From Rhodospirillales bacterium (GTDB taxonomy: Bacteria; Pseudomonadota; Alphaproteobacteria; Bin95), in NCBI GenBank assembly GCA_008081395.1, contig VMCJ01000011.1, positions 14,264-78,263 on the forward strand: a DNA stretch of 64,000 nt. Reading direction: 5' to 3'. The notes under the pieces are model-generated. The model was given only the letters and a program-made list of their open reading frames with translations, was not told the origin of the DNA and ran no database searches. This document shows positions 11,619-58,916 of the stretch, piece after piece. Position 1 is the stretch's first letter, and every line of letters starts with the position of its first letter. The position numbers were made by a program, and so were the translations under genes.

Positions 11619-11635
11619 GTTTTAGCCCCTACCCA

Positions 11636-11673
11636 GAAAACCAAAAGGCCGCTGCAATACATTTGCAACGGCC
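11636..11673 (-). terminator. rho-independent terminator downstream of petC
   Basis: On the minus strand there is a 10-bp stem, GGCCGUUGCA-aauguau-UGCAGCGGCC, followed by UUUUGGUUUU. Confidence 0.65.
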
Positions 11674-11700
11674 TTTGTACAACGTTTTAAACGTAGTTGG

Positions 11701-12531
11701 TTAGTGCACTTTTCGCCAAACTTCACGCTTCGCGAGGTACAGTAGAATGGTTAATATCACTAAGAAAATGATAACTTTAAAACCAGTCTGTTTCCGCTCT
11801 TCCAGCTTTGGCTCTGCAACGAAAGCAAGAAAATTGTTTATATCAGTCGTCATTTGTTCGACTGTTGCTGCTGTGCCATCATTATAAGTGACTGCATCTG
11901 GTGACAGAGGGGGAGCCATACTAATTTGATAGCCTGGATAATAGGCATTGTAGTATCGGCCTTCCCCGACTTCACATCCTGCAGGCGCATCCATGTAACC
12001 ACCAAGAATTTTTGGAATATGTGCCTCAAAATCAGGGCGAGCTTTCACTATTAGGCTAAGGTCAGGAGGGATGGCACCCCCATTTGCCGCAGCTGCTGCC
12101 TTTACATTAGGAAATGGTTTTGGGAAGTGGTCCGATGGAAGAGCCCTTCTTAATACCACTTCACCCTCGTCATTTGGTGGGGCGGGGACTTCATACTCCT
12201 GGGCTACACCCTTGATTTCGTCTTCGGTTGCGCCGAGCGCTGACAAGTTACGAAATGCGAAGAGATTTAGGGAGTGGCATGAGGCACAAACGCCTCTGTA
12301 TACCTCGAAGCCGCGGAGCGCTGAATCGTGATCATAATGGCCAAAAATCCCCTGAAAAGACCACTTTTGCTCTGGGATAGTGGGCAAAGTTTTTGGAGTA
12401 CAGGCAGTTTCTTTTCCAGCTCCGGCTGCACTTGCAGTAGATGCAGGAATACTGGCGGATGCAAAAAGTATTAGGCCAGCAAAGAGAGAGGAAGAAATTT
12501 GTTTAAGGGTCATTTTTCTTCGTCCCTTCAA
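11701..12531 (-). CDS. petC: cytochrome c1 of the bc1 complex
   Basis: Signal peptide, a CASCH heme-binding motif and a C-terminal membrane anchor are present. It is the last gene of the petABC cluster. Confidence 0.85.
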
Positions 12532-13748
12532 GCACTAGTGCCAGATGGCGATGGTTTTGAAATACTCAGGGGTAGATCAATTGGTCGCTCATATAAGCCA
12601 AGAAGTGGCAGCAAAATGATGAAGTGGGCAAAATAATATACAGTGCCTAGTCTGGACAGTACCACCCAGATACCTTCAGCAGGCATCGCTCCACAGAACC
12701 CCAATAATATACAGTCTGCTAAAAGAACCCAGAACAAGACAAAATACACTGGGCGGAATTTCGCTGACCGAATAGGTGAGCGGTCCAACCAAGGCAGCAC
12801 GAAGAGCACTGCAATTGCGGCAAACATCGCAATAACTCCACCCAATTTATCTGGCACAGCTCTCAGGATCGCGTAGAACGGCAGGAAGTACCATTCAGGA
12901 ACGATGTGGGCGGGGGTTACTAGAGGATTTGCCTCAACGTAGTTGTCAGGGTGACCCATATAATTGGGCGCAAAAGACACCACTGCCATAAAGATGGTGA
13001 GAAACACTCCCAATCCAAACATATCTTTAACTGTGTAATAGGGATGGAAGGGGATGGTATCACCCTTGTTCTTTATATCGATTCCGAGGGGATTGTTTGA
13101 GCCGTGCTGGTGCAAAGCTGCTATGTGCAAAATAACTACCCCAGCAATCACAAATGGTAGGAGAAAGTGCAAAGAGAAGAAGCGGTTTAGGGTTGGATTG
13201 TCTACTGTAAACCCGCCCCAAAGCCATGTGACTATGTTTTCACCAATCAGCGGAATAGCTGAGAACAAATTGGTAATGACGGTGGCGCCCCAGAAACTCA
13301 TTTGGCCCCATGGTAAAACGTAACCCATAAAAGCGGTGGCCATCATCAATAGCAAGATGACAACACCAAGAATCCAGAGCAATTCTCGTGGAGCTTTGTA
13401 GGACCCGTAATAAAGTCCCCTAAAAATATGAATGTAAACAACGATAAAGAAGAACGACGCTCCATTCATATGAATGTATCGGATCAGCCAACCGAAATCG
13501 ACGTCTCGCATAATTCGTTCTACTGAGGCGAAAGCATAATCCACATGCGCTGTGTAGTTCATCGACAGCACAATGCCCGAGACAATCATTATAACCAGAC
13601 AGAACCCGGCGAGACTACCGAAATTCCACATATAGTTAAGGTTTCTCGGCGTGGGATACTCATGCAACTCATGATTAAGCATGGAGAATACCGGCAAGCG
13701 GTACTCAATCCACCGAACGATGGGATTCGAAAATTCAGGTGAGCTCAT
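12528..13748 (-). CDS. petB: cytochrome b of the bc1 complex
   Basis: Polytopic protein with the conserved His pairs and a PEWY motif ([15 protein letters not shown]). Length is 406 aa. Confidence 0.9.
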
Positions 13749-13760
13749 CGATTATGTGCC

Positions 13761-14330
13761 TCATCCGATCTTAATAACGTTTTCAGACAAGAACTCGTAA
13801 GGAGGAACAGCTAAGTTAGCTGGGGCTGGTCCTCTGCGAATTCTACCGGAGGTATCGTAATGGGAACCGTGGCAGGGGCAGAACCAGCCATCGTAGTCAC
13901 CCTTCACGTCCCCTGTCTTTTGGCCAAGCGGTATACATCCAAGATGGGTGCATACGCCAACGATAACAAGCCACTTGGCTTCACCAGGCTTTACCCGTTC
14001 TGCGTCAGCTTGAGGATCTGGTAAATCGTCGAGGTTAACGCTTTGTGCTTCCTCTATTTCTTTAGCAGTCCGATGTCTAATAAAGGTTGGCTTTCCTCGC
14101 CAGACCACAGTTATTGATTGCCCCTCTGCAACTGAAGCTACATTTACCTCAGTAGAAGCTAAAGCAAGAGTATCTGCTGCGGGCCGCAGGTTTGACAGGA
14201 AAGGCCAAACTGCAGCGACTGTTCCAACGGCTGCCATTGCGCCTGTTGCCATAAAGAGGAAGTCGCGCCGTCCCTCATCCATGCCAACATCAGCGTCATG
14301 GTTCCCGGCGGCGTGTACCGGCTCCGACAT
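13761..14330 (-). CDS. petA: ubiquinol-cytochrome c reductase Rieske iron-sulfur subunit
   Basis: CTHLGC and CPCHGS Rieske boxes are present, and the N-terminus carries a twin-arginine (RRDFLF) signal. Confidence 0.9.
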   Translation of the reverse strand: MSEPVHAAGNHDADVGMDEGRRDFLFMATGAMAAVGTVAAVWPFLSNLRPAADTLALASTEVNVASVAEGQSITVVWRGKPTFIRHRTAKEIEEAQSVNLDDLPDPQADAERVKPGEAKWLVIVGVCTHLGCIPLGQKTGDVKGDYDGWFCPCHGSHYDTSGRIRRGPAPANLAVPPYEFLSENVIKIG

Positions 14331-14488
14331 AAACTACTACCTCGCAAAAAGGAAAATTTTACGACTAAGACTTAGCCCAGCCGCATATGTGAACCCAACC
14401 CGTTAAAGGTCCGAGCGTCATTATGACGCGCGATTTCCATAACGTTTAATATGTCTACGATTTTTCGAGAAAAAAGTCATTATAGGTT

Positions 14489-14938
14489 ATGCGAATTGCT
14501 CTAATACAACCTGAAATTCCTCAAAATGTTGGAGCTGTAATCCGACTTGCCGCCTGTCTTGGGGTGAATGTTGATCTTATTGGTCCTTTGGGTTTTGTTC
14601 TGACCGACAAAAAATTGAAGCGAGCTGGCATGGACTACATTGACCTTGCAAAGATTCGCCGCTTTGACAGCCTGGAAGACTTTATAAGCACTATGACAGG
14701 ACGGCTTATTCTTTTCACTACAAAGGGTGACATTGGGGCTTATAGTTTTAACTATAGATCAGGAGATGTGCTCGCCTTTGGTTCGGAGTCATCTGGCGCT
14801 CCTGCTTTAGCTCATTCATCAGCGGCGGCCCGTTTGGCGCTGCCAATGACCGAAGGCGCACGCTCAATGAACTTAGCCACCGCTGCCGCTTTGGCGCTTG
14901 GGGAGGGGCTCCGCCAAATTGGTGGATTGCCTCAGTGA
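14489..14938 (+). CDS. trmL: tRNA (cytidine/uridine-2'-O)-methyltransferase, SpoU/TrmL family
   Basis: SPOUT fold N-terminus ([20 protein letters not shown]) and a C-terminal SAM-binding knot region are present. Length is 149 aa. Confidence 0.8.
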
Positions 14939-44230: not shown

Positions 44231-44902
44231 CTAGGGATTCCATAATTCTAAGTCTGCAACGGATGCCCGAATTTTAGTTTTTGTATCGTCGCTATCTGCA
44301 GAAATTGCTAAACCAACAAGCGTTGTGATTGGTGCACCAAAAGCAGTTAAAAAGTCTTGGTCTAAATTTACAGACTCTTGAAATCTTCCCAAGCCAGAGG
44401 GGCGTAGGATAATCGTTTTACCCTGATTACCCAGGTACGGCGTTAACAAAAAATCACCTCGTTTATGAGCTCCTCCAAAAACGTACATCAATACTCTGAT
44501 GGATTTATTGTCGAGCATTGAAAGCATTGACTTATGTTGCAGGGTTGGTGCGTCTTTTGCCTCCGCGAATACAAAGTACATTGCAAGATTGCGATCATCG
44601 CTTCCTTTAATAGTTAGATCCGTTGGGGGAACAGTTTTAGTTACCTCCCATGTCCATGACGCTTTTTTGGTCGATCCACTTTTGCCCTCTGTCGCAGACC
44701 AAATCATCGACACGGTTTTGTCAGATTCAACCAACACCTGGTTCATATTGGTTATGTATTTATTTGATGAGAACACTGAAAATTTTTGATGGGTCCAGCC
44801 ATCAAAATTGATCGACTTTGCTAATGCTGGATTGATGATAAATACCAACATGGCTAGCAGGCACCAAAGTATCTTCCCCGTTGAAAACAATGAATTATTC
44901 AT
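44231..44902 (-). CDS. hypothetical secreted protein in a low-GC stretch
   Basis: Signal peptide (LWCLLAMLVFIINPALA). Length is 223 aa. Local GC (~40%) is visibly lower than in flanking genes. Confidence 0.45.
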   Translation of the reverse strand: MNNSLFSTGKILWCLLAMLVFIINPALAKSINFDGWTHQKFSVFSSNKYITNMNQVLVESDKTVSMIWSATEGKSGSTKKASWTWEVTKTVPPTDLTIKGSDDRNLAMYFVFAEAKDAPTLQHKSMLSMLDNKSIRVLMYVFGGAHKRGDFLLTPYLGNQGKTIILRPSGLGRFQESVNLDQDFLTAFGAPITTLVGLAISADSDDTKTKIRASVADLELWNP

Positions 44903-44954
44903 TCGCTCTTTATGTTCAACTGCAACTAAAGATTAGTTTTAAGCAAAACAAAAA

Positions 44955-45722
44955 TCATTCCATTACAAGGCCACCATCTACATAAATCGTTTGTCCAGTG
45001 ATGAAAGCCGACCAGGGTGAAGCTAGAAAAAGTACTGGCCCCGCTATGTCTTCGGGCTTCGCTATACGTCGCAATGGGGTGGCAGAGATAATATCTTCTT
45101 TGATATTTTCTCGCACCCTTTCGCTCGCTTTAGTTGGGTAAACTAACCCAGGGGCAACAGTGTTGACGCGTATTCCAAGGGGGCCAAGTTCAGCTGCTAA
45201 TGTGCGCGTAAACCCTACTAGGGCGGCCTTTGCAGTTGCATAGTCGTGGTATGGGACGACGGGTCTCGCAATCAGATCGGTGGCAATGTTAATGATGGAT
45301 CCGTTGGCGCGGGTTAACATGTTTGGAACCGCTGCTTGCACCATATTATGAGCGGCCTGCACTGCACCCTCAAATTGGCTCTGGTAATCTTGCCAATCTA
45401 GGTCCCAATGAAGTTTCCTCCGCTCTGGGTCAAACTCATATGGTCGAAAAGCGTTGTTAACTAGAACGTCGATCTTCCCAAAGGCTTCAATGGTCTCGGA
45501 GACTAAGTTTGTTGCACCGTCTTTATTTGTAACATCAGAGCAGATTGCTAATGCTACTCCGCCATTTGTCTCGCAGGCTGCAACAGTTGCCGCCGCGGTT
45601 TCGGCATTGGTTAAATAATTTACACCAACGTTGGCCCCTTCGCGCGCAAAAGCTTGAGCAATTGCCGATCCTATCCCGCGACCAGCACCAGTGACGAGCA
45701 CACTTTTTCCGCTAAAATTCAT
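44955..45722 (-). CDS. SDR family oxidoreductase, last enzyme of the TPP-riboswitch operon
   Basis: TGAGRGIG Rossmann motif and a YxxxK active site are present. It starts 5 nt after the binding-protein gene. Confidence 0.8.
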   Translation of the reverse strand: MNFSGKSVLVTGAGRGIGSAIAQAFAREGANVGVNYLTNAETAAATVAACETNGGVALAICSDVTNKDGATNLVSETIEAFGKIDVLVNNAFRPYEFDPERRKLHWDLDWQDYQSQFEGAVQAAHNMVQAAVPNMLTRANGSIINIATDLIARPVVPYHDYATAKAALVGFTRTLAAELGPLGIRVNTVAPGLVYPTKASERVRENIKEDIISATPLRRIAKPEDIAGPVLFLASPWSAFITGQTIYVDGGLVME

Positions 45723-45727
45723 AGTTA

Positions 45728-46702
45728 TTATTTCGGTATGAGATCGCTGAAGATAACCTTTTTCATCTCTAATTTAGATTTAATTAGTCCTAGTTCTAAG
45801 AAAGTGTCAGCGCCTTTTTGCAAGAGCTCGACGTCAAAATGCCCAAGCCCTTTAGCTTTAGTCGTTTGTGATTGCGCAGAGAGATTTCGGAGTTTGATGA
45901 TTGCAAGGTTTACCTTTTCGTTCCGCCCGTTAATTGAGCGCGTTATAGCGATTTTTGCCGCTTCTTCCGGCTCAGAAATCATCCACGCAGCACTTTTTTG
46001 ATATGCTTTTAAAAATCGGCGGAGTAGGGGTTTTTGATCCCTATAATGATTGCGGCGAACGACAAACATATCGCTTGGTACATTAAGGCTATCTCTGACC
46101 TCTATTACATCGACCTCACCAATGCCCTTTAGTTTAGCAACGTAAAGGCCAGTGTCGGTTGCTGCAGTGGCATCCACTTGGCCTTGCATTACTGGTGCAA
46201 AGTTAAGCAGACCAGTTACCTTAATTTTAACATCAGTCTCTTTAAGCCCCACCTGATGCAGTAGGACCTGAAGATTTTGCCGAGTTCCGCTGGAAAGGCT
46301 GTATACCCCGATAGTCTTCCCTTTTAAGTCTGCCGGTGTCTTGATACCCCGACCAACCGGTGAAACCACGTTAAAAACATTTTGGGGGTAGATATTGTAA
46401 ATGGCTACTAAGTCCTCGCCTTTATCGAGAGCTTGATAGAAAGAGGCTGGATCTGTGAACGCTACATCCGCTGCTCCTGAGAGCATATTAGCAATTGCGG
46501 ACCCCCCACCTGCGCCTGGGACGTAGCCAAGGTCTATTCCTTCTGCTTTAAAAAACCCTTTGTCAGGTTCGGCAAGTATATTGGTGATTTCGCTAATTGG
46601 TTTACTCCAACCAGCAATACGTACCTTTTCAAGAGTTGCAGACATGGCTGCAGAGCTGGTGAAAGAGAACGCTAATATCGCTGCCAATAGAGAATGTTTC
46701 AT
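45728..46702 (-). CDS. ABC transporter substrate-binding protein, NMT1/THI5-like (ThiY-like)
   Basis: Signal peptide plus an NMT1/SsuA/TauA-type periplasmic binding fold. A TPP riboswitch heads the operon. Confidence 0.7.
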   Translation of the reverse strand: MKHSLLAAILAFSFTSSAAMSATLEKVRIAGWSKPISEITNILAEPDKGFFKAEGIDLGYVPGAGGGSAIANMLSGAADVAFTDPASFYQALDKGEDLVAIYNIYPQNVFNVVSPVGRGIKTPADLKGKTIGVYSLSSGTRQNLQVLLHQVGLKETDVKIKVTGLLNFAPVMQGQVDATAATDTGLYVAKLKGIGEVDVIEVRDSLNVPSDMFVVRRNHYRDQKPLLRRFLKAYQKSAAWMISEPEEAAKIAITRSINGRNEKVNLAIIKLRNLSAQSQTTKAKGLGHFDVELLQKGADTFLELGLIKSKLEMKKVIFSDLIPK

Positions 46703-47457
46703 TAGAAGGTGCCTTTCTGACGGCTTTGTAAAATCCGCCTCTCAATTACAACTATAATTTGATAAAAAAAGAGGCCCATAAGGGTGATCAGAATAAAAAG
46801 AGCGAAAATTAAGGTTGTATCCATCATCCCTTGAGCAGCAATGATGCTAGCTCCTAGCCCCTTGCTGCCTGCAATAAATTCGCCAACTACTGCGCCTACC
46901 AAAGCGAGAACTATCGCAACTCGAATTCCAGCTAGAATTACGGGCATGCTGGTTGGAAGCTTCAGTCGCAATAAGGTCTGAAGTCTGGTCGCACCCAGCA
47001 TGCGAAAGAGATCTCTTTTCTCCTGCGGAACATTTGATAAACCCGTTATTGTGTTTTCGAGCAGTGGAAAGAAACAGATTAGAGCTGTGATAATGACCGT
47101 AGAGGTCATCCCAAAGCCGAACCAGATTATGAAAATTGGTCCAAGAGCTAGTTTTGGCACTACCTGACTGGCAAGCACGTAAGGCCAAAGGAGACGGCGA
47201 AGGCGCGGCATTTCGGCAAGTATCGCGCCAATAAGGAAACCGATGACGCACCCTAGGGCAAATCCCAACAGAGTCTCAGCACCAGTTACCCAGAGATGTT
47301 GCCAAAGAGCACCAGATACAAGGCCATCCCAAAGTGTTTCTGTAACTGCTGAAGGCGCAGGAAGTACCAGAGGCGAAACTCCGGAGAGCAACACACCCAG
47401 CTCCCAGGCGATCAGTACCGCTACGAGCAGAGCAGAGCTGGATATATGCCTCAACAC
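46702..47457 (-). CDS. ABC transporter permease, NitT/TauT family (ThiX-like)
   Basis: 6-TM permease with an EAA-like loop. It overlaps both neighbouring genes. Confidence 0.8.
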   Translation of the reverse strand: MLRHISSSALLVAVLIAWELGVLLSGVSPLVLPAPSAVTETLWDGLVSGALWQHLWVTGAETLLGFALGCVIGFLIGAILAEMPRLRRLLWPYVLASQVVPKLALGPIFIIWFGFGMTSTVIITALICFFPLLENTITGLSNVPQEKRDLFRMLGATRLQTLLRLKLPTSMPVILAGIRVAIVLALVGAVVGEFIAGSKGLGASIIAAQGMMDTTLIFALFILITLMGLFFYQIIVVIERRILQSRQKGTF

Positions 47458-48215
47458 TGTCCCGCCCCTAATAACATTGCCGATCTGACTTTCCGGCAGA
47501 GTTTGGAAAAGTGGGCTTCATATCGTAAGTCTGAGGCTCGTGGTCTAGGAAGGTCTATTTCGACTTCGTGGGTAATAAGCCCTCCCTCCATAACTAAGAT
47601 TTTGTCTCCCAGGTATGCTGCTTCTCCAATATCGTGGGTGACAAAAATTACAGTCGTGCCGCTGGCTTCAACCAGATTGATTAATACGTCTTGGAGATCC
47701 TCACGGGTTAATGCATCAAGAGCAGCGAATGGTTCGTCCATCATTAGGACGGGGGGGGAGGTAACAAGCGATCGGGCAAGCGCTGCCCGGCTTTGTTGCC
47801 CGCCCGAAAGTTGTTCTGGATAACGTTGAGCAAGATGCTTGATGCCAGCGAGTTCCAGCAGTTCGAGCGCAAATTTTTCATCCGATTTATTTACAGAGCC
47901 TTTAAGACTTATAGGTAGTAAGACGTTATCAATTACCGTTAACCATTCTAGAAGGGATGGCGTTTGAAATACAAAACCAACATCTGAAGATGGCCCATCG
48001 ACAGGGGTATCGCTAATTTTAATTGAGCCGGACGATGGTGCCAGCAGGCCAGCAGCCACTTTTAAACATGTAGTTTTTCCGCATCCACTCCTGCCGACCA
48101 AGCAATAAAACCCGCCTTTGGGAATGTTAAAGTCAATTCCCAAAAGACCTTTTGATCCATTAGAAAAAGTATAGCTAACTTTTGATAGGCTAATTGAGGT
48201 TGGGTTAGTCTGCAT
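47451..48215 (-). CDS. ABC transporter ATP-binding protein (ThiZ-like)
   Basis: Walker A GRSGCGKTT, the LSGGQQ signature and Walker B MMDEPF are present. Confidence 0.85.
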   Translation of the reverse strand: MQTNPTSISLSKVSYTFSNGSKGLLGIDFNIPKGGFYCLVGRSGCGKTTCLKVAAGLLAPSSGSIKISDTPVDGPSSDVGFVFQTPSLLEWLTVIDNVLLPISLKGSVNKSDEKFALELLELAGIKHLAQRYPEQLSGGQQSRAALARSLVTSPPVLMMDEPFAALDALTREDLQDVLINLVEASGTTVIFVTHDIGEAAYLGDKILVMEGGLITHEVEIDLPRPRASDLRYEAHFSKLCRKVRSAMLLGAGQC

Positions 48216-49656
48216 AACTGGCCAAATCTTCAGCAGCAGTTTCAGCGCGAGCCTCTATTTCGGTTATTCTTACTAGGTCAAGCAAATTGAAACGTCCATC
48301 GTGGTGCCAGCCGGCTTCTGGTGAGGTCATATCGCCAAGAGCAGTAACACGGGTCACCCCGACTTCACCTAACATGGAGGCAAGGTTGAAAAGACGTTCT
48401 GGTGTCGCAGAGATTGCCGCCGTTTGGATCAATGTTTTGTAGGGCTTGGATAATATTGGCGTTTCTTCAAGGTCGTCGACGGCAACAATTCTGATAGTAC
48501 GATTAAGACCACTTGGCCTCAGTGCACGGTCTTGCAGTTGAATTGAGACAGTCCAATTACCGTTGCATGGTTCTACGACTTTACCACCCAGACGGGTCTC
48601 TTCTGCCATACGCCATTCTACTAAGCTAGATGCCTCGGCAAGAGAGAGGGGGCGCCGCGGGAATTTTTCCTCATAACTTGCAAGTGATTGGGCTATGTAA
48701 GTTCCAAAAGTTTCTGGTGAAATTGCACCACCTTTTTCGACGAAGAAAACATGCGGTGAGTAACACCCCTGCTGGTCATATCGTACAACGTCGTATGCAG
48801 CCTTTCTTGCAGTTGAAGAGGCGCGGGAGGGATCAAGGGCTTCTCTCCCAATTAGGCCAAAGCTGATTTTATGGCCGTGAGCTAGAAAGCGCGTCGATGC
48901 TGGGGCTTGCGCTGCTAGCGCTGCGATCGCCGTGTCTCCACCGTATGCAAGTGCAACATCTGCTTCCCTAAACAGTCCGGCCTCAAGTTCTGTATTGCCG
49001 CCCTGCCACCAAACCAGTGCTATCGTCTTCGCGAGTTCAGGATCGGTTTCCGCTAAAACGTCATGAAACCACCCTGCAAAAAAAGGCTCAGCTGTCGCAA
49101 CCTTTCCAACGCTTGCGGCCTTCACTAACAGTCCAGCAATCAGTGTCCAAAGAGGCAGACCAGGAACATTTCCTGCCCAAACATGTGCTAAGAGATCAGG
49201 TCCAAAGGCACGACCAAAGCCTCCTTTAACAAGTGGCTGGAATTTGTCGAGAATACCTGGGTTTGGAAAGTCTTCGGTAATGAAACGCTGAAGTTGCGGT
49301 TTTCTGAACGTTTTGAGATAGCCAGTAAGGCCAATCCGCACCATTTCTTCGTCATAGCCAGTCACTATTGGCAGCAAATGCTCCATTTTTTTTCGAACTG
49401 GGTGGCTTCTGTCGAGAAGACGGGCCACTGTCTGGTCAATAGCAGTAAGAACCCTATCGACAGGCCAAGTTTTGACACTGTTTCTCGCGTTGAGCCGAAC
49501 TTTGGAGGCGATGATACTCAGATCTGCGGACTGCAAATTTGGCGTTAATGCAATTAAGCTCTTTTCACCATCTCCGCCATATTGCCTGGGCTCCCAATGA
49601 ATCCTCTCTGGATCAAGCCCATGAAGGCGGCCTACGTATTCAACGTCTGTTGTCAA
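48205..49656 (-). CDS. LuxC-family acyl-CoA reductase (aldehyde-forming)
   Basis: 483-aa protein whose architecture and conserved blocks resemble LuxC (aldehyde dehydrogenase-superfamily fold with a catalytic Cys region). It overlaps the LuxE-like gene by 4 nt. Confidence 0.65.
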   Translation of the reverse strand: MTTDVEYVGRLHGLDPERIHWEPRQYGGDGEKSLIALTPNLQSADLSIIASKVRLNARNSVKTWPVDRVLTAIDQTVARLLDRSHPVRKKMEHLLPIVTGYDEEMVRIGLTGYLKTFRKPQLQRFITEDFPNPGILDKFQPLVKGGFGRAFGPDLLAHVWAGNVPGLPLWTLIAGLLVKAASVGKVATAEPFFAGWFHDVLAETDPELAKTIALVWWQGGNTELEAGLFREADVALAYGGDTAIAALAAQAPASTRFLAHGHKISFGLIGREALDPSRASSTARKAAYDVVRYDQQGCYSPHVFFVEKGGAISPETFGTYIAQSLASYEEKFPRRPLSLAEASSLVEWRMAEETRLGGKVVEPCNGNWTVSIQLQDRALRPSGLNRTIRIVAVDDLEETPILSKPYKTLIQTAAISATPERLFNLASMLGEVGVTRVTALGDMTSPEAGWHHDGRFNLLDLVRITEIEARAETAAEDLASYAD

Positions 49657-50735
49657 TTTGCAGCCGCCGATATCAAAAATTCATCGACCGCCATTGAACA
49701 CCCCTGAGCCTCGGCACCACTAACGCGCCCATGGAGCATGAAACCTTCATCCACCTCAACCCCTGCATCTTCTGTCAATATAGTGGTTACAATATTGAAG
49801 TGGGCGAGGTCTGTGTGCGCAAGAACACCAGTCGTGCCCTTGGGGAGGGATGAGCCTGTGAGAGGGTCAACGACACGTGTTTTTATCCAATGGGGGCCAG
49901 ATTTAACAGACGGACAAACAGCATTACCATTGTCATAGAATTGGGTGCTGAGCTCAGTCATTCCATACATATTGATGCAGTTTGCGCGAGAGACCCCAAA
50001 AGCATTTTGAAGGGCATCATAAAATGTATCCAACTCCAACTCTCGGGATTGGCCTTTAAAACCTCCAGTATCGAGAAGGCGGCTGCCAGGCGGTAGTTGG
50101 AAGCGTCTTCCCTGACGTTCCATTTCATCTAAAACATGGACGAAGCTGAAACTGGCGCCCAGCAAACCGTATGATACACCATTTTCTTCTGCATCTTCCA
50201 AACTGTGGAATAAGCGTTCGTAATCGATGCCATTACTTCTAACAAAGTGGGAGCTTCCCTCAGAGCCAAAGTATTGCTTGGCGAGTTCAAGATAATGGGC
50301 GAGCGAGGAATTCGGCATAGCCACAGGTGGCGGAAAAAGAATGCCAATTTTTAGTTTTTCTCTATTGCCCATGAATCGTTCGAGAAAATTTTGACGCATT
50401 GATGCGTTATATACGGCCAAGGTTGGATGGTAGCTTTTCCCTCTTTTTCCACCCTGTGTTGTGCCACTTGTCATAAAGGTGGCTTCTGCACTTGTTGGAG
50501 AGGAGCATGTAAGGTCAAGCGTCTTGAAGGCGCTGATGGGTACAGCGGGAATATCTGCCCAGTGCCGCACCGTTTTGGGTGTTTTTCCTCTTGCTAAGCA
50601 AAACTTTTTGAACGGCAGGTTATGTTCAAATTGATATGCAAAAATTGAAAGCGCCATCTGATCGAAATCGGCTTCGACAGCATTTTTATTTTCGATGAAG
50701 GTTAGGAGTTTGCTAACAACTTCAGCCTCATCCAT
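49653..50735 (-). CDS. LuxE-family acyl-protein synthetase (adenylate-forming, ANL-like)
   Basis: TSGTT AMP-binding P-loop (MTSGTTQGGKRGKSY), about 360 aa in length, and LuxE-like conserved blocks. It is the first gene after the riboswitch. Confidence 0.65.
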   Translation of the reverse strand: MDEAEVVSKLLTFIENKNAVEADFDQMALSIFAYQFEHNLPFKKFCLARGKTPKTVRHWADIPAVPISAFKTLDLTCSSPTSAEATFMTSGTTQGGKRGKSYHPTLAVYNASMRQNFLERFMGNREKLKIGILFPPPVAMPNSSLAHYLELAKQYFGSEGSSHFVRSNGIDYERLFHSLEDAEENGVSYGLLGASFSFVHVLDEMERQGRRFQLPPGSRLLDTGGFKGQSRELELDTFYDALQNAFGVSRANCINMYGMTELSTQFYDNGNAVCPSVKSGPHWIKTRVVDPLTGSSLPKGTTGVLAHTDLAHFNIVTTILTEDAGVEVDEGFMLHGRVSGAEAQGCSMAVDEFLISAAAN

Positions 50736-50789
50736 CGCGCTATCTCCACTCAGAGGATGACACTAGGAGAGGGATAGGCCGCATCTTTA

Positions 50790-50930
50790 GAGTCCCATTC
50801 CCTCCGCCGGTATAATCCGGTTCAGGTTCAAAGGGTCATCGTGCTGACACTCATTTTAGTCAACGACCAATGGTGTCTATCGATATCTCAGCCCTTAAAG
50901 CAGGGCCCCCCTACGGTAAGTCCCAGACGC
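50790..50930 (-). promoter_or_regulatory. TPP (thiamine pyrophosphate) riboswitch, THI-box
   Basis: The minus-strand RNA reads ...GGGGGGCCCUGCUUUAAGGGCUGAGA-(variable hairpin)-ACCCUUUGAACCUGAACCGGAUUAUACCGGCGGAGGGAA. Compare the E. coli thiM aptamer GGGGUGCCC...GGCUGAGA...ACCCGUAUCACCUGAUCUGGAUAAUGCCAGCGUAGGGAA. The aptamer ends ~55 nt upstream of the luxE-like ATG. A CUCUCC element could sequester the GGAGAU Shine-Dalgarno. Confidence 0.85.
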
Positions 50931-51062: not shown

Positions 51063-51911
51063 TTAGGAAATTAAAACTCCTTTGGCGTCGTCTGACGCGA
51101 TTGTACAACGCCAGTGAACACGACGCTCTTCGATGGGATAATCTGCTGTTGCAGAATGGAGTGTGCAACGATTGTCCCAGGTAACCAGATCACCGACTTC
51201 CCACTTGTGTCTATATTCTGCCCCCGGTGCAATTTGATATTGTTCTAGTTCTTGAAAAAGATCCTTCGCTTCTTGATCAGATAAGCCAACGATCCGCAGC
51301 AAATGTGTAGGATTGAAGTAAAGAGTTTTTTGTCCAGTCTCACTATGAGTGCGAATTAAGGGGTGTCGCACTGGTGGAAGATTTCTGTCCTCTGGCTCAA
51401 GCAGTTCCGAACTTTTTCGAGATACACCCCCATAAACATAATCTGCTTCCAAGTTTTGAATTCTCTTCTTAAGGGTATTTGGTAAGGAGTTATAAGCCAT
51501 AGCCATATTGGCAAAGAGCGTGTCTCCACCTCTTGATGGGATCTCCAAGCCAAAAAGCTGTGTGGCTTTACACCCCTTTGGATCCCAAGGACCATCTGTG
51601 TGCCATCCGTGTCCGCGCGTATATACCGGCCTATTTACAGTCCCATCAGCATTGCGAGCATTGGTGCCCATGACCGTCAATTCGGGATGATTTGGATGAC
51701 GTGATTTTTTTACTAAGTGTGGAAAAATTTCGCCAAAGCGTCGGCCATAGCTGAGAAAGTCTTCAATTGTAAGTTCTTGACCACGAATGCAGATCACACC
51801 AGCTTCGAGCCAGGCTCTATAGATCAGCTGAAATTCACTGTCGCTTATGCTTCGAATATCTATACCGGTGACGATTGCCCCACAGCCAGGACTGGCCTTT
51901 TCAATATGCAC
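51063..51911 (-). CDS. TauD/TfdA family Fe(II)/2-oxoglutarate dioxygenase
   Basis: HxD...H facial triad (HWHTDGPWD ... H) and TauD-like blocks are present. The likely GTG start at 51911/51914 sits immediately after AGGAGGAGG, which overlaps the upstream stop. The ORF-track TTG start at 51950 would overlap the LLM gene by 29 nt. Confidence 0.75.
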   Translation of the reverse strand: MHIEKASPGCGAIVTGIDIRSISDSEFQLIYRAWLEAGVICIRGQELTIEDFLSYGRRFGEIFPHLVKKSRHPNHPELTVMGTNARNADGTVNRPVYTRGHGWHTDGPWDPKGCKATQLFGLEIPSRGGDTLFANMAMAYNSLPNTLKKRIQNLEADYVYGGVSRKSSELLEPEDRNLPPVRHPLIRTHSETGQKTLYFNPTHLLRIVGLSDQEAKDLFQELEQYQIAPGAEYRHKWEVGDLVTWDNRCTLHSATADYPIEERRVHWRCTIASDDAKGVLIS

Positions 51912-51921
51912 CACCCTCCTC

Positions 51922-52917
51922 CTACTGCAGCTCGCTTTTGATTTCACCAATTAGTTCAATTGCCTTGAGTACATCCTTTTGGGCTAATCCAGGCCACTGC
52001 AGCCTAACTATCAGGTGATTGACCCCAAGTTTTTGGTTAAGCCATTGGATCCGATCTTTCACCATAGCCTTGTCGCCAATAATGAAACGAGCTGCTTGGA
52101 AGTCATCAAAAGCCTCTTCGAAAGGTTGTCCTGCAACATTGGCGCTACCCCACGACGCGTAAGCTGAATACTTGTAAATTAGGGGTTCCTTGGCGATAGC
52201 AAAAGCCTGTTTAGCCGTAGTAGCGACGAAGCATTCCCGTATCATTGGTTTTTCAGTGGGAGGGCCAAGACCTTTTGCTTCGCGTTCTTCATCATAAATC
52301 GCGTAATTGCGTTCCAACTGATCCCAATCAGCAGATGGGCTAACTAGCCAGGCATCAGCTATTCGAGCAGCACGACGTATTGCGGGTTCTACGCTTGCTC
52401 CGATCCAAAGAGGCAGGGAGGATCCATTTTTGGGTCTAACAGAGGCGCCAACGTCTGTTAGCTGAAAGAACTGGCCCGTATGAGAAATGCGGTCCTCTGA
52501 CCAGAGGCGCCGAATGACGTTGATTGCTTCTGTCGTCCGAGCGGCACGCTTACTAAAATTGACCCCAAAGGCCTCGAATTCTGCCTCACGATATCCTAGG
52601 CCAACGGCAAGAATATAACCACCTCTGCAGATCCAATCGAGTGTTGCTGACTCTTCGGCCACTTGAACAGGGTTAGTCATACCTAGGAGCCATATACCGG
52701 GCCCCATTCGCATATTTCCCGCTTCTGCAGCAAGTCTTGCTAACAGAATATTAGCCTGAAACATGCGAAGAGGCTGCGTCAGGTAGTGGTGTGGCGCTAT
52801 GATAGAGGAAAAACCACAATCGCGAGCAGTACGCACCTGAGCCAACAAATTTTCAGTTGCATCATCTAAAGGCGCGTCATCAGAAAATTGTGGATTTATG
52901 TAGAGGCCAAAGTCCAT
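51922..52917 (-). CDS. LLM-class (luciferase-like) flavin-dependent monooxygenase
   Basis: TIM-barrel LLM blocks with an MDFGLYINPQF start. The internal ATG at 52917 avoids overlap with the amidohydrolase gene. Length is ~331 aa. Confidence 0.7.
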   Translation of the reverse strand: MDFGLYINPQFSDDAPLDDATENLLAQVRTARDCGFSSIIAPHHYLTQPLRMFQANILLARLAAEAGNMRMGPGIWLLGMTNPVQVAEESATLDWICRGGYILAVGLGYREAEFEAFGVNFSKRAARTTEAINVIRRLWSEDRISHTGQFFQLTDVGASVRPKNGSSLPLWIGASVEPAIRRAARIADAWLVSPSADWDQLERNYAIYDEEREAKGLGPPTEKPMIRECFVATTAKQAFAIAKEPLIYKYSAYASWGSANVAGQPFEEAFDDFQAARFIIGDKAMVKDRIQWLNQKLGVNHLIVRLQWPGLAQKDVLKAIELIGEIKSELQ

Positions 52918-52940
52918 TTGACATCTCTCTCTTGCAGAAA

Positions 52941-53975
52941 TCAGTTTATTTTGTAGGTGCGAACCGCCGTGTCGTGGAATAGCTGACGTTTTTCGTCGAC
53001 GCTGTAATCCAGTGTAAGGTGCTTGAAAGAATTCCAAAGAGTGTTGTAGCTGCAGCTGGTCATATCTACTGGAAAGTTTGACTCGAACATACATCGACTG
53101 GTGCCAAAGTGTTCAATGGTATGTTCGTACCAACGTCGAGTTGCCTGCATTAAAGTTTCGCTAGTTGGTGGTGTGTTATGATTTTCCCAGCCAAAGCCGT
53201 TGATATCCATATTGATGCCACCAAGTTTTGCTAACACATTTTGACAGGTTGCTAGATCGGCTATTTCTTTCTGCCAGATTGGAAAAATGTCGTCAGCTTT
53301 ACCCGCATAAGGTCCAATTCCAAGAGGGCCTCCAAAGTGATTTAGAATGATAGTTGTATCTGGAAATGCCCGTGCTAGTGCGGTTACTTCTTTAAGTTGT
53401 GTGTGATAGCACCAGGCTTCAAAAGTCATATTTCTGGGAGCTAATTCAGCAAACCCTTCTCTGAATTTTGCATTTGAAAATCGGTCCGGCCCGTTTGCAT
53501 CTTTGGCGCTGCGAATCGAATTGTCAGCATCCCACTGGCCCTGGCAGCGAATTCCACGAAATCGCCCTCCGCCTGCTTGAACATGGGCATCAAGAACTTC
53601 GCCAACAGCACTGCCAATATTTAAATTGGCTGAGCCAACGATAGCTGCTGCAACCCTGCACTTCCCATACAAGCCAGAAGCACTCATCGCCGCGATACCA
53701 TTTACGAACTCTGTTTCTCCAACGCACTTCAGGTGCTCTGGACCACTCGCCCTGTACATCGCTGAGCACTCAATGAACACAGTGCTGACAATGTTATGAC
53801 CAGAATTTAAGTCCGACAAAATTTCATCAAGAAGATATTTCGGCGCTACACGGTCATGGCGAAACTCCCACAAGTGATGATGAGGATCACAGATCGGCAA
53901 TTCCGGCTCCAAAGTATCTTCGATGACTTTGTCTAACCATGGCTTATTTTTTGAAGGAGTCATCATGCTATCCAT
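52941..53975 (-). CDS. amidohydrolase-2 (PF04909-type) metal-dependent TIM-barrel hydrolase/decarboxylase
   Basis: N-terminal DPHHHLW metal-binding motif and an Amidohydro_2-type C-terminal region. Length is 344 aa. Confidence 0.75.
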   Translation of the reverse strand: MDSMMTPSKNKPWLDKVIEDTLEPELPICDPHHHLWEFRHDRVAPKYLLDEILSDLNSGHNIVSTVFIECSAMYRASGPEHLKCVGETEFVNGIAAMSASGLYGKCRVAAAIVGSANLNIGSAVGEVLDAHVQAGGGRFRGIRCQGQWDADNSIRSAKDANGPDRFSNAKFREGFAELAPRNMTFEAWCYHTQLKEVTALARAFPDTTIILNHFGGPLGIGPYAGKADDIFPIWQKEIADLATCQNVLAKLGGINMDINGFGWENHNTPPTSETLMQATRRWYEHTIEHFGTSRCMFESNFPVDMTSCSYNTLWNSFKHLTLDYSVDEKRQLFHDTAVRTYKIN

Positions 53976-54091
53976 TTTGAAAATTCCCGACGTTACAGCG
54001 TGCGCTCGTTAGATATTATCCTCAAGGCATTTGATTGCATTTAGTTGCCGCTATCCAATAGGCTGTAGTGATAAATTGGGAGAAAATCCTC

Positions 54092-54892
54092 ATGGAAACG
54101 CCGACTTCAATTCGTGCTGAAGTTCGCTATGTGAATGCTGAATGGAAAGGTCGAAATGAAATTCCTCGAATAGGGTCCAGGGAAACACGACGGGCTAACA
54201 CGTCCCGAAAGTCCATAGATATTTACGATGCTCGACCAGGCCTTGCGAATGGTGAAATCACTTTAGATGGTTCCGGTTTTACGCTTGAAAAGCTTGTGCA
54301 CGCCGTAGAAGATTTTCGTGATATTGAGGCCACAGCGCGCCAGTACTACCCCGCTGTTGAAAAGTTGGTGGCCGATCTTTCTGGAGCAAAGAATGTATTT
54401 GTCCGGGATCATTTGGTTCGAACAGAGGTTCCCATTGACTTCAATGATGGATACGCAAGATTTGTTCATTGCGACTATAACATGAAGAGGTTGAAGGAGA
54501 TGTCTGAGTCTTTGTTGAAGGCTAGAGGTATTGAGCCGAAAGAAGACTGGACCTATGCGTGGTTCAATACCTGGCAGCCTTTTGACAACCCAGCCGTAAA
54601 TAATCCGCTAGCTTTTATAGATTGGCAATCATTGCCAGAAGATGACGTAATTGATTACTTCTATACAGGTCGAAACAGAGAGAGTTTGGTGGCGGCTCCC
54701 GTTTATAATCCAGATCACGTTTGGCGCTATGTGCCGTCGATGTCGCCAGATGAAATTCTGATTTTTAAACAGATGGACGGAAGGCGTAATGCATCTGTTT
54801 ATTGCCCTCATACCTCTTTTGATAATCCTGCGGCCCCGGACGATGCCCCACCGCGTCGAAGTGTTGAAACACGGTTGTTGGCAGTTTTTTAA
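54092..54892 (+). CDS. hypothetical protein, possibly a CmcJ/NvfI-like non-heme iron oxygenase
   Basis: 267-aa soluble protein with candidate HxD (FVHCDYN) and distal His (YCPHTSF) ligands. The assignment is tentative. ATG at 54092 is preceded by GGGAGA. Confidence 0.35.
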   Translation: METPTSIRAEVRYVNAEWKGRNEIPRIGSRETRRANTSRKSIDIYDARPGLANGEITLDGSGFTLEKLVHAVEDFRDIEATARQYYPAVEKLVADLSGAKNVFVRDHLVRTEVPIDFNDGYARFVHCDYNMKRLKEMSESLLKARGIEPKEDWTYAWFNTWQPFDNPAVNNPLAFIDWQSLPEDDVIDYFYTGRNRESLVAAPVYNPDHVWRYVPSMSPDEILIFKQMDGRRNASVYCPHTSFDNPAAPDDAPPRRSVETRLLAVF

Positions 54893-56675: not shown

Positions 56676-57722
56676 ATGCCAAAAGCTTTCTTGACAACCG
56701 TTATAGGATCAATGCCCAAGCGGCCCTGGCTGATGAGAGATAGAATAGCCTTGGATGGTAAAAAGGACCATTTTGGCAAGGGCCCCGAGTGGGTTTTGGA
56801 AGGCACGGCACTCTCTGAAGCACAAGATGATGCTGTACGCGTCGTTGTCTCTCAGCAAGAGCAAGCAGGGATCGATATTATATCCGATGGGGAGCAACGT
56901 CGGACTAATTATGTAACGACAGTAGTTAGAGGCTTAGATGGTTTTGACTTCGAATCATTAAAGGAAAAAACCATGCGAGCAGGCCGTCGCAAAGTATTGG
57001 CTGGTCGCTGCATCGGAGAGATAAAACATACCAGGCCTTTAGTTGTTGACGATGTGAAATTTCTTAAAAGCGTCACAAATCGTAAAATCAAAGCAACCTT
57101 GCCAGCACCAATGACAATTGTGGACAGTATTAATGACGACTTCTACGGTGATCCTAAGTCTTTTGCTTTTGCATGGGCAGAGGAAATTAATAAAGAGGCA
57201 AGGCTTTTAGAGGCGGCTGGTGCCGATGTTATCCAGTTTGATGAGCCAGTTTTTTCTCGTTATCCAGACGAAGCGGCAGATTGGGGTATTGAAGCGCTTG
57301 ATCGTTGCGTCGATGGCCTATCTGTAACAACAGCAGTGCATATTTGTTACGGATATCCCCAACCTGGCTTGGAACGGCCTATACCGGACGCCTATCCAAC
57401 AGTTGTTGCCGCGCTTGAACACTCTAAAATTGATCAGCTTGCCTTGGAGTTTGAGGGTTCAACACTCAATCCAGAAATTTTAAAATTATGCCCAACAAAG
57501 ACCGTTTTGTTTGGCTGTGTTTTCAATTCTGATGGAGTGATGGAGACAGCTGAACATGTTGCAGACAGACTGTTAAAAGCGGCAGAAGCCTTGTCGCCAG
57601 AACAGATCCAGGCGGCTCCTGATTGCGGTCTTGCGCCAATGTCACCAGCTAAGGCTTTTCAGAAGTTAAAGGTAATGTGTGAAGGAGCAGCGCTTGCTCG
57701 GAAGCGTGCAGGTTTGGAATAG
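56676..57722 (+). CDS. cobalamin-independent methionine synthase (MetE) C-terminal-domain family protein
   Basis: Short (348 aa) UROD/MetE-like protein. N-terminus TTVIGSxPxxP and Zn-binding His/Cys/Glu residues are positioned as in MetE-like methyltransferases. Confidence 0.7.
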   Translation: MPKAFLTTVIGSMPKRPWLMRDRIALDGKKDHFGKGPEWVLEGTALSEAQDDAVRVVVSQQEQAGIDIISDGEQRRTNYVTTVVRGLDGFDFESLKEKTMRAGRRKVLAGRCIGEIKHTRPLVVDDVKFLKSVTNRKIKATLPAPMTIVDSINDDFYGDPKSFAFAWAEEINKEARLLEAAGADVIQFDEPVFSRYPDEAADWGIEALDRCVDGLSVTTAVHICYGYPQPGLERPIPDAYPTVVAALEHSKIDQLALEFEGSTLNPEILKLCPTKTVLFGCVFNSDGVMETAEHVADRLLKAAEALSPEQIQAAPDCGLAPMSPAKAFQKLKVMCEGAALARKRAGLE

Positions 57723-57734
57723 GAGGGTTAAAAG

Positions 57735-58916
57735 TTGCCTATTATAAATCGCATAGCCGAACTGAAGGAGGAAATGACCGAGTGGCGTCGAGAAATGCAT
57801 ATGCATCCCGAGACAGCTTTTGAAGAGGAGTGGACGAGCGCGTTTATACTCAAACGCCTAGAGACCTTTGGCATGGACGAAATTCATACTGGCATCGCCA
57901 AAACAGGCATTGTCGCAGTTTTGAGGGGCCAGGAAGAGGGGCCGGCAATAGGTCTGCGCGCTGACTTTGATGCGCTCGATATCCTTGAATTAAATGACGT
58001 TTCATACAAATCAAAAATCCCAGGCAAGATGCATGCATGTGGTCATGATGGTCACACTGCGATGCTCCTTGGGGCAGCCAAATACATGGCTGAAACGAGA
58101 AATTTTCGGGGAACAGTATATTTCATTTTCCAACCTGCGGAGGAGAATGAGGGCGGCGGCCGAGTGATGGTTGAGGACGGTCTTTTTGATCGGTTTCCGA
58201 TGACAGCTGTTTATGGCATGCACAATTCACCGGGTGTGCCGATTGGCCATATCACTATGGGATCCGGCCCAATGATGGCAGGGTACGACATATTCGAAAT
58301 AATAATTGATGGTTATGGCACCCACGCGGCCCGTCCGCATCAGGGTGTTGATCCTGTGATTATTCAGGCGCAGATTGTTATGGCACTGCAAACTATTGCA
58401 TCAAGGCAAACTGATGCATTGGACAGCGTGGTCCTCTCTATTACGCAGGTGCACGGAGGCGACACCTGGAACGTGATACCGCAGCAGGTGATCCTGAGAG
58501 GCACGGTTAGGTGTTTTTCCCCCCAGGTCCAAGATCTAGTTGAAGACAAAATGCGAAAGCAATGTGCGGCAATTGCCCAGGCCTTTGATGCAAATGTTAC
58601 CGTCAATTATGAGCGTCGCTACCCACCAACAGTCAATGATCCGGAACAAACAAAATTTTGTGCTGAGGTGGCTTGTGATCTTGCAGGCCCAGATAACGTG
58701 AACGCTAATGCCCGGCCAGTGATGGGGTCAGAGGATTTTTCATTTATGTTACAAGAAAAGCCCGGTTGTTACATACGGATGGGCAATGGAGGACCAGGTG
58801 AATTTGGATCTGTTGTTGTTCATAATCCCCGATATGATTTTAATGACGAAGCGTTGCCGTGGGGGGCTAGCTATTGGGCGCAGCTTGTAGAAAAGGCTCT
58901 GCCACGGCAAAAGTAA
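57735..58916 (+). CDS. M20 family amidohydrolase (hippurate hydrolase / N-acyl-amino acid amidohydrolase-like)
   Basis: MHACGHDGH metal-binding motif and M20D dimerisation-domain blocks. Length is 393 aa. Confidence 0.85.
   Translation: MPIINRIAELKEEMTEWRREMHMHPETAFEEEWTSAFILKRLETFGMDEIHTGIAKTGIVAVLRGQEEGPAIGLRADFDALDILELNDVSYKSKIPGKMHACGHDGHTAMLLGAAKYMAETRNFRGTVYFIFQPAEENEGGGRVMVEDGLFDRFPMTAVYGMHNSPGVPIGHITMGSGPMMAGYDIFEIIIDGYGTHAARPHQGVDPVIIQAQIVMALQTIASRQTDALDSVVLSITQVHGGDTWNVIPQQVILRGTVRCFSPQVQDLVEDKMRKQCAAIAQAFDANVTVNYERRYPPTVNDPEQTKFCAEVACDLAGPDNVNANARPVMGSEDFSFMLQEKPGCYIRMGNGGPGEFGSVVVHNPRYDFNDEALPWGASYWAQLVEKALPRQK

Follow-up and report, generated by a model that had tools for sequence, protein, structure and literature searches.

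The window analysed here, a stretch of 64,000 nucleotides (nt) from a Rhodospirillales bacterium (contig VMCJ01000011.1 of assembly GCA_008081395.1, positions 14,264 to 78,263), carries on its minus strand three genes that occupy the entire span from 51063 to 53975. The first of them (52941..53975) encodes an Amidohydro_2 protein of 344 amino acids (PF04909, 103 bits), a lactonase-like TIM-barrel hydrolase of the COG3618 type. It is followed by a gene for an LLM flavin-dependent oxidoreductase/monooxygenase (51922..52917; 331 amino acids; PF00296, 158 bits) and by a gene for a TauD/TfdA-family Fe(II)/2-oxoglutarate (2OG) dioxygenase (51063..51914; PF02668, 209 bits), referred to here as the TauD-like protein. 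The original prediction had proposed both the gene order and the family assignments, and the open reading frames (ORFs) and Pfam matches agree with it. We read the locus as an ordinary three-gene accessory operon, recently assembled in one marine Rhodospirillales lineage that is probably SAR116-like, and consider the chances of this reading to be about even. In-frame ATG codons at 53966 and 53963 are alternative starts of the amidohydrolase gene, and MTPS is the N-terminus of many homologues. The mechanically called LLM ORF begins farther upstream; its start was set at the ATG at 52917, because the family N-terminus MDFGLY begins there. The gap between the amidohydrolase and LLM genes is 23 nt, and that between the LLM and TauD-like genes is 7 or 10 nt, with a TauD-like protein of 283 amino acids from GTG 51914 or of 282 amino acids from the conserved GTG 51911. 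Annotation of ORFs covered about 26.7-64 kb of the window except for several ORFs at 38.3-42.1 kb, and all statements on neighbouring genes in the window refer to this part.

The junction between the second and the third gene, at 51909..51924 on the minus strand, reads TAG GAGGAGG GTG GTG, exactly as had been pointed out before. Behind a CAG codon, the LLM stop TAG takes positions 51924-51922 and GAGGAGG positions 51921-51915, and the two GTG codons begin at 51914 and 51911. Within this arrangement an AGGAGG (51923-51918), the putative Shine-Dalgarno sequence, overlaps the LLM stop and lies 6 nt ahead of GTG 51911, which is the best geometry in the window. Three close relatives (L006, L007 and L015) read TAGGGGG(C/G)GCAAGGTG at this place; they keep the stop codon, the G-rich stretch and only the second GTG, 10 nt past the TAG. 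Because the second GTG stands behind a G-rich stretch in all three, the alignment indicates that the position of the junction is conserved, whereas GAGGAGG in its perfect form is seen in this genome only. The motif as such is not rare, since six copies occur on both strands of the window and a rough estimate from composition predicts about 6-7; the only copy located at a real gene start is the one at the LLM/TauD-like junction. With an AGGAGG that overlaps the upstream TAG and a GTG start 7-10 nt downstream, the anatomy is that of a coupled gene pair. That translation of the TauD-like gene is coupled to that of the LLM gene, as originally suggested, is therefore plausible from the sequence and from the junction positions kept in the relatives, although it would be unremarkable.

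Tight packing of the three genes had been taken as informative, but it is the norm for this genome. A gap of 25 nt or less separates 21 of the 37 same-strand neighbour pairs in the window, the median gap is 12 nt, and coding sequence, counted by longest ORFs, makes up about 93% of the window, so that the close spacing carries little weight. More telling is where the three genes are found together. They are adjacent in L006, L007 and L015, at 84-87% identity and within a region of 20 kb that is syntenic throughout, and beyond such relatives (84% identity or more) none of the orthologue loci examined for each gene had them together. Nor did relatives of the TauD-like protein stand beside amidohydrolase or LLM orthologues in any of these loci. 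The comparison thus argues that the three genes are not a conserved unit beyond close relatives, and the unity that had been implied for them is not supported. Since their orthologues elsewhere reside in unrelated neighbourhoods, the operon would have been assembled recently in this lineage. The same observations also suit another explanation, namely that functionally unrelated genes came to lie in one orientation by chance and are co-transcribed through tight same-strand packing in a streamlined genome, with no common substrate. The orthologues of each gene lie in different neighbourhoods, members of the amidohydrolase family stand alone in 80 genomes (see below), and tight spacing is usual here. 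However, the trio, its spacing of 7-23 nt and the stop/Shine-Dalgarno/start junction are all kept in the three relatives, despite the replacement of the downstream cassette in one of them (L015), and all three products are oxidative or hydrolytic enzymes of a catabolic type. We regard chance co-orientation as a serious but clearly less probable alternative to a recently assembled accessory operon.

Among the three proteins, the TauD-like dioxygenase allows the most specific statements. It scores 152.3 bits against the TauD equivalog profile NF007104, for which the cut-off is 313, and its best matches in the PDB are RdpA, TauD and 2,4-D dioxygenase, all about equally good (E ~1e-31 to 1e-34). 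The iron triad is kept as H105/D107/H253 (H99/D101/H255 of E. coli TauD in the alignment) and the 2OG ligands as T132/R265 (T126/R266), with the WHTD and GGDT motifs aligned; triad and ligands are invariant in 29 family members. Also kept, and invariant in the family, are the anion-binding residues H66 and R269, which correspond to H70 and R270 of the E. coli enzyme. In E. coli TauD structures, His70 and Arg270 hold the sulfonate, while Tyr73, Asn95 and Ser158 bind the amine of taurine. These three amine-binding positions are replaced in the TauD-like protein, Y73 by K, N95 by G and S158 by V. In TfdA, RdpA and AtsK, the Arg that is equivalent to R270 has a carboxylate or a sulfate as its ligand, hence the kept H66/R269 pair points to an anionic substrate and not specifically to a sulfonate. 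Two extra basic residues, R72 and H73, are invariant in the 29 family members, and because they are placed in the predicted pocket, the substrate may carry a carboxylate or another acidic group as a second anion.

The neighbourhoods of the relatives narrow this picture. The nearest non-syntenic orthologues, 70-74% identical, are found in L001 (5893-12744), L098 (1644-6549) and L103 (3373-8179), between a metE-like gene and cysK plus cysE. The block consists of a LysR gene, the metE-like gene, the TauD-like gene, cysK and cysE, in which the TauD-like gene diverges from the metE-like gene and converges with cysK; the CysK proteins score 559-563 bits (cut-off 387) and the CysE proteins 232-237 bits (cut-off 210.65). 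Relatives of 54-59% identity lie, on at least eight contigs, between a divergent gene for a binding protein of the TctC type and a gene of the TauE/SafE family (PF01925) (L003-L005, L105-L108, L112, L114 and L115), often together with further TauD paralogues and a short-chain dehydrogenase/reductase (SDR). This second arrangement looks like an uncharacterised locus for sulfonate desulfonation. On plasmids, tblastn found TauD-like matches of merely 31-36% identity. By analogy, both contexts point to sulfur metabolism and sulfite release, and in view of these sulfur-related neighbourhoods and of the exchanged taurine-amine ligands, a non-taurine sulfonate is favoured. That the enzyme of the window itself desulfonates an organosulfonate has, judged by these analogies, roughly an even chance. 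The sulfonate link drawn in the original prediction thus survives in part for the TauD-like protein, but not for the trio as a tau/ssu cluster.

The LLM protein stays below every NCBIfam cut-off that we considered: 129.3 against 166.9 bits for TIGR03619, the best match, 38.8 against 518.2 for SsuD (TIGR03565), 33.2 against 498.3 for RutA (TIGR03612) and 55 against 383 for SfnG. Its AlphaFold2 (AF2) model has a mean confidence (pLDDT) of 90, with RslO1 (7bip) as top PDB match at a TM-score (TM) of 0.88, followed by Atu2307, PuwE-OX and bacterial luciferase (TM 0.85-0.87). Weaker matches are Mer (TM 0.74-0.77), SsuD (0.73) and RutA (0.75). The modelled fold therefore appears closest to the luciferase-like monooxygenases that depend on flavin mononucleotide (FMN). 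Two other assignments were considered and dropped. An F420-dependent enzyme of the TIGR03619 (Rv2161c) family is made less likely by the subthreshold score and by a fold nearer to the FMN type than to Mer or Fgd. Catabolism of the pyrimidine type, which had been raised with RutA in mind, fails on score as well as on fold (TM 0.75 against 0.88 for RslO1), and no rut genes (rutB-G) are present near the trio in the scanned region. Orthologues of the LLM protein that are 64-77% identical occur in four lineages (L008-L011, L096 and L097), where they lack amidohydrolase and TauD-like partners and are always divergent from a gene pair encoding a CCG and a LUD_dom/Fer4 protein (LutA/LutB-like). Near these orthologues we also observed an AsnC-type regulator and a cluster with an AMP-ligase, a zinc-dependent alcohol dehydrogenase, a cupin, a TauD paralogue and a flavin monooxygenase (FMO).

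These data bear directly on the idea of a classical sulfur-starvation operon, with orthologues of tauD and ssuD under CysB/Cbl-like control. The membership of the two oxygenases in the TauD and LLM families and the sulfur-related context of the TauD-like relatives would suit it. The profile scores for TauD, SsuD and SfnG, all far below their cut-offs, do not, nor do the unconserved taurine-amine residues and an LLM fold that is nearer to RslO1 and luciferase than to SsuD. In addition, there is no ssuE and no ssuABC or tauABC in the operon, no LysR gene is located nearby among the scanned ORFs, and the sole NMT1-type binding protein is placed under a riboswitch for thiamine pyrophosphate (TPP). 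The profile comparison thus largely refutes a tau/ssu operon at the level of orthology, in agreement with the initial view that the trio does not fit this model, and we consider such an operon highly improbable.

For the amidohydrolase, the best NCBIfam match is L-fucono-1,5-lactonase (NF052480), at 62.8 bits far below the cut-off of 400. By sequence or profile, its sole solved relatives are two COG3618 proteins, 6uvz and 4dlf, the latter being the top PDB hit of a profile of its family (E 3e-16). In line with this, Foldseek searches with the AF2 model (pLDDT 72) returned 4dlf and 4do7 as best matches (4dlf with E 2.5e-13 and TM 0.65/0.77), then LigI-like hydrolases and then decarboxylases. 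Residues 35-94 of the model form an inserted region of low confidence. The protein has a TIM barrel, an N-terminal HxH and its nearest similarity to COG3618 members, which places it within the COG3618/PF04909 fold. The motifs CDPHHHLW, NHFGGP and FESNFPVD are (near-)invariant in 21 aligned family members that are 63-85% identical to the window protein; the same is true for DPHHH within the first of these motifs, and P31 is conserved at 90% or more. This family is large, with more than 8000 proteins at E<=1e-20, and its members with 51-73% identity span Alphaproteobacteria, Gammaproteobacteria, Chloroflexota, Methylomirabilota, Acidobacteriota and further groups. A recurrent neighbour was not found in the 80 GTDB genomes with such homologues (L016-L095), the commonest Pfam among immediate neighbours being present in 4 of 77 cases. 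An LLM gene was nearby in one of the 80 loci, and distant TauD paralogues (28-33% identity) in five. On plasmids, tblastn detected homologues of 46-53% identity in replicons of Rhizobium, Paraburkholderia and Methylobacterium, where the surroundings mix CoA-transferase, acyl-CoA and transporter genes and do not point to one pathway. Individual loci of the census differ: in L018 three paralogues (65, 61 and 55% identity) stand in tandem, while L034 brings together the amidohydrolase, a YDMC-type gene and a TauD paralogue.

The lactonase-like fold could also suggest a different pathway, in which the LLM protein converts a ketone into a lactone by Baeyer-Villiger oxidation, the COG3618 hydrolase opens it, and the TauD-like protein, together with an oxygenase of the CmcJ/NvfI family, hydroxylates the product. 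The gene for this latter protein (54068-54892, plus strand; PF27522 YDMC, 205 bits against a cut-off of 80) lies next to the trio in divergent orientation and keeps this position in the close relatives. Members of the CmcJ/NvfI family act in antibiotic and meroterpenoid tailoring. Such a module would agree with lactonases as closest solved relatives, with the natural-product monooxygenases and type II Baeyer-Villiger monooxygenases among the structures matched by the LLM protein, and with the gene grouping in L034. However, co-occurrence is not conserved (one of 80 loci), a likeness in fold does not establish chemistry, and the contexts of TauD-like proteins elsewhere indicate sulfur metabolism and not lactones, which makes a lactone pathway unlikely.

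Downstream of the trio, a TPP riboswitch (RF00059; 50782..50922, minus strand) was detected at 65.1 bits, above the gathering score of 54.3. It begins 140 nt behind the TauD-like gene and is a boundary feature outside the operon. L006, L007 and L015 retain the riboswitch, and four relatives share a TTGACG -35 box directly ahead of the aptamer, from which we conclude that the riboswitch unit has its own promoter. Since it sits 3' of the trio, and not in a 5' leader of one of its genes, the riboswitch cannot control them. The cassette that it heads (44231-50922, minus strand, from riboswitch to DUF3047) encodes, in this order, a LuxE-like acyl-protein synthetase of the carboxylate-activating type (50735..49653, minus strand), a LuxC-like acyl-CoA reductase (49656..48205, minus strand), an ABC ATPase, a permease, an NMT1/ThiY-like binding protein, a FabG-like SDR (44955-45722) that is possibly OarX-like, and a DUF3047 protein. 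The binding protein matches PDB 3ix1 with E 2e-7 and SsuA with 8e-7. That the transporter is under TPP control had thus been anticipated correctly. It had also been described as lying next door to the trio, which is true for its riboswitch unit as a whole, yet the binding protein is not directly adjacent, the LuxE-like and LuxC-like genes and two ABC subunits being located in between. With the riboswitch, a conserved -35 box of its own and the LuxE and LuxC genes intervening, a functional tie between trio and transporter finds no support. Past the aptamer, the leader contains CCCTCTCC; since this element could pair with the GGAG ahead of the LuxE start, translational control of the cassette is suggested.

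The cassette itself is variable. In L015 (9816-12421, 85% identical, compared with 45728-50922 of the window) the riboswitch is kept while LuxE, LuxC and SDR are absent, and the ABC transporter behind it is of a divergent type (26-42% identity), hence the cargo of the riboswitch is exchanged between close relatives. By analogy, the order of activation, aldehyde formation and alcohol formation would fit the salvage of an oxidised (carboxylate) breakdown product of thiamine. A literature search found no description of LuxC or LuxE under a TPP riboswitch. A study from 2024 (PMC11223231) described an unexplained association of the TPP riboswitch with acyl-CoA synthetases, the SDR OarX and the FMN-dependent monooxygenase FmnO; its authors proposed that products of thiamine oxidation are salvaged, but five such compounds gave negative results when tested genetically. 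The cassette of the window suits this proposal well.

One may therefore ask whether the trio and the TPP cassette (LuxE, LuxC, ThiY-like ABC transporter, SDR) form a single module that processes a thiamine breakdown product. In all three relatives the trio abuts the riboswitch, even in L015 with its different cassette, and the association reported in PMC11223231 ties the riboswitch to an SDR and an FMN-dependent enzyme. To follow aptamers in other loci, we searched for approximate matches to the conserved 30-nt 3' core; this search found all the copies detected by Rfam, including one below threshold in L001. In that locus thiO-thiS-thiG-thiE lie 1.2 kb from the 74% identical TauD-like orthologue, with an aptamer of 52.2 bits against the gathering score of 54.3. 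In L084, a metagenome-assembled genome of Dehalococcoidia (10001-14730), an amidohydrolase homologue (52%) is followed after 76 nt by a TPP riboswitch (62.8 bits), a gene for an SSF (ThiV-like) transporter and thiC. These two loci would speak for a thiamine module. On the other hand, the riboswitch of the window is downstream of the trio and behind its own -35 box, no aptamer occurs in seven other loci with TauD-like or LLM orthologues, and L098 and L103 keep the core of metE-like gene, TauD-like gene and cysK without thi genes. L084 is the only one of the 80 amidohydrolase loci with a TPP riboswitch, an event to which a rough estimate assigns a chance probability of about 7%. A vitamer module is thus quite improbable. 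Its more elaborate version, an island that recycles vitamin B1 breakdown products, in which the trio oxidises or opens a thiamine- or pyrimidine-derived compound and the riboswitch genes reduce a carboxylate vitamer to a precursor, appears slightly less probable still.

Upstream of the trio, the divergent intergenic region at 53976..54067 (92 nt) is shared with the CmcJ/NvfI-family gene and is the presumed promoter region. A check of this region for a regulator site had been suggested. Inverted repeats were not detected in 53976-54067, and in the alignment with L006 and L015 only short blocks are conserved. No gene for a regulator, including the LysR type, is present among the scanned ORFs. 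Past the CmcJ/NvfI gene follow genes for an aminotransferase, a ferredoxin, a protein similar to the C-terminal part of MetE, an M20 amidohydrolase, a cupin, a family III CoA-transferase and a molybdenum hydroxylase. The genes for the MetE-like protein and the M20 amidohydrolase together take 56676-58916 (plus strand). The MetE-like protein comprises the C-terminal domain only, has 'methionine synthase' PRK09121 as best NCBIfam match (280 bits against 392) and is 37-38% identical to the metE-like genes that are paired with TauD-like orthologues elsewhere; the M20 amidohydrolase gene (TIGR01891, 358 bits) starts 12 nt after it.

For the accessory operon that we favour, a simple sequence of events can be proposed. 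Transcription would probably start in the divergent region 53976-54067 and read through the amidohydrolase, LLM and TauD-like genes. Ribosomes that end at the LLM stop would probably re-engage at the overlapping AGGAGG, 6 nt before GTG 51911, and translate the TauD-like gene. The first enzyme would be a COG3618-type amidohydrolase-2 with lactonases (L-fucono-1,5-lactonase, LigI-like) as closest solved relatives, and the second a short LLM protein of the FMN-type fold that would need a flavin reductase encoded elsewhere. The third, an Fe(II)/2OG dioxygenase of a distinct TauD/TfdA subfamily, most likely would hydroxylate the carbon beside an anionic group and free sulfite from a non-taurine organosulfonate. 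That all three enzymes serve one pathway is something we can at most infer. Several observations weigh against this proposal. A shared pathway is without comparative support, because the three orthologue sets never co-occur elsewhere. The sulfonate assignment draws solely on the neighbourhoods of relatives of 54-74% identity in two clades, and specificity can shift between such enzymes. There is no sulfonate transporter inside the operon, no flavin reductase among the scanned ORFs, and no tauE, cysK, cysE or tctC in the annotated parts of the window. The amidohydrolase model is of only moderate confidence. As for transcription, the divergent region contains merely weak sigma-70-like matches, at the level of shuffled sequence. 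A consensus scan revealed no intrinsic terminator 3' of the TauD-like gene, where folds are weak and unconserved (z-scores of -2.4 for the window and of +1.0 and +0.3 for relatives), so that read-through into the riboswitch leader is possible.

As it stands, the trio is a normal accessory operon made of three very common enzyme superfamilies and matters little by itself; the riboswitch cassette beside it is the more interesting object. Two of its genes might nevertheless have wider use. In marine 'omics studies, TauD-family genes of SAR116 are counted as taurine dioxygenase by KEGG orthology, an example being the metatranscriptomics of a bloom with K03119 (bioRxiv 10.1101/2024.12.10.627767). 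Because the TauD-like subfamily falls below the TauD cut-off and is without the taurine-amine ligands, counts of this type may overstate taurine use and miss another sulfonate. The large uncharacterised amidohydrolase family, lacking conserved neighbours, is a reasonable target for enzyme discovery. Should the link to thiamine be true, it would bear on which oxidised B1 vitamers bacteria salvage, and how, and an island for B1 recycling would give a function to the OarX/FmnO association that has long been without one.

The COG3618 lactonases, namely 4dlf (the L-fucono-1,5-lactonase BmulJ_04915) and the 2-pyrone-4,6-dicarboxylate hydrolases of the LigI type, are the best matches of the amidohydrolase in sequence and fold, and they align with it at the N-terminal D-x-H-x-H motif and over the C-terminal barrel. 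However, identity is only about 20%, the score remains at 62.8 of the 400 bits demanded, the protein is about 40-60 residues longer than 4dlf and the LigI-like hydrolases, and it belongs to a highly conserved family of its own without sugar-acid or lignin-pathway neighbours. Similarly, the LLM protein shares the PF00296 superfamily and the TIM-barrel fold with SsuD, MsuD, SfnG and RutA, but differs from them by its score (39 vs 518 for SsuD, 55 vs 383 for SfnG and 33 vs 498 for RutA) and by its shorter length of 331 amino acids. Its modelled structure resembles RslO1, Atu2307 and luciferase (TM 0.85-0.88) more than SsuD (0.73) or RutA (0.75), and unlike in the SsuD-type and RutA systems no partner flavin reductase or rutB-G genes are found near it among the scanned ORFs. 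The TauD-like protein differs from E. coli TauD by an identity of about 30%, by a score of 152 vs 313 bits, by the exchange of Tyr73/Asn95/Ser158 for Lys/Gly/Val, by the extra invariant basic residues of its family and by the absence of tauABC. With the TauD/TfdA/AtsK group it has in common the Pfam family and the length, and with E. coli TauD the His-X-Asp...His triad, the Thr/Arg 2OG ligands and the equivalents of His70 and Arg270; its relatives adjoin genes for sulfite export or cysteine synthesis. Finally, the OarX/FmnO/acyl-CoA-synthetase clusters (PMC11223231) differ from the locus described here in that the LLM gene of the window lies upstream of the riboswitch and is not under it, and in that activation of the LuxE/LuxC type is not described for them. 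On the side of the likenesses, the window has a TPP riboswitch, a LuxE-like activator, a LuxC-like reductase, a ThiY-like protein and a FabG-like SDR, and a gene of an FMN-monooxygenase family, the LLM gene, just upstream of the riboswitch.

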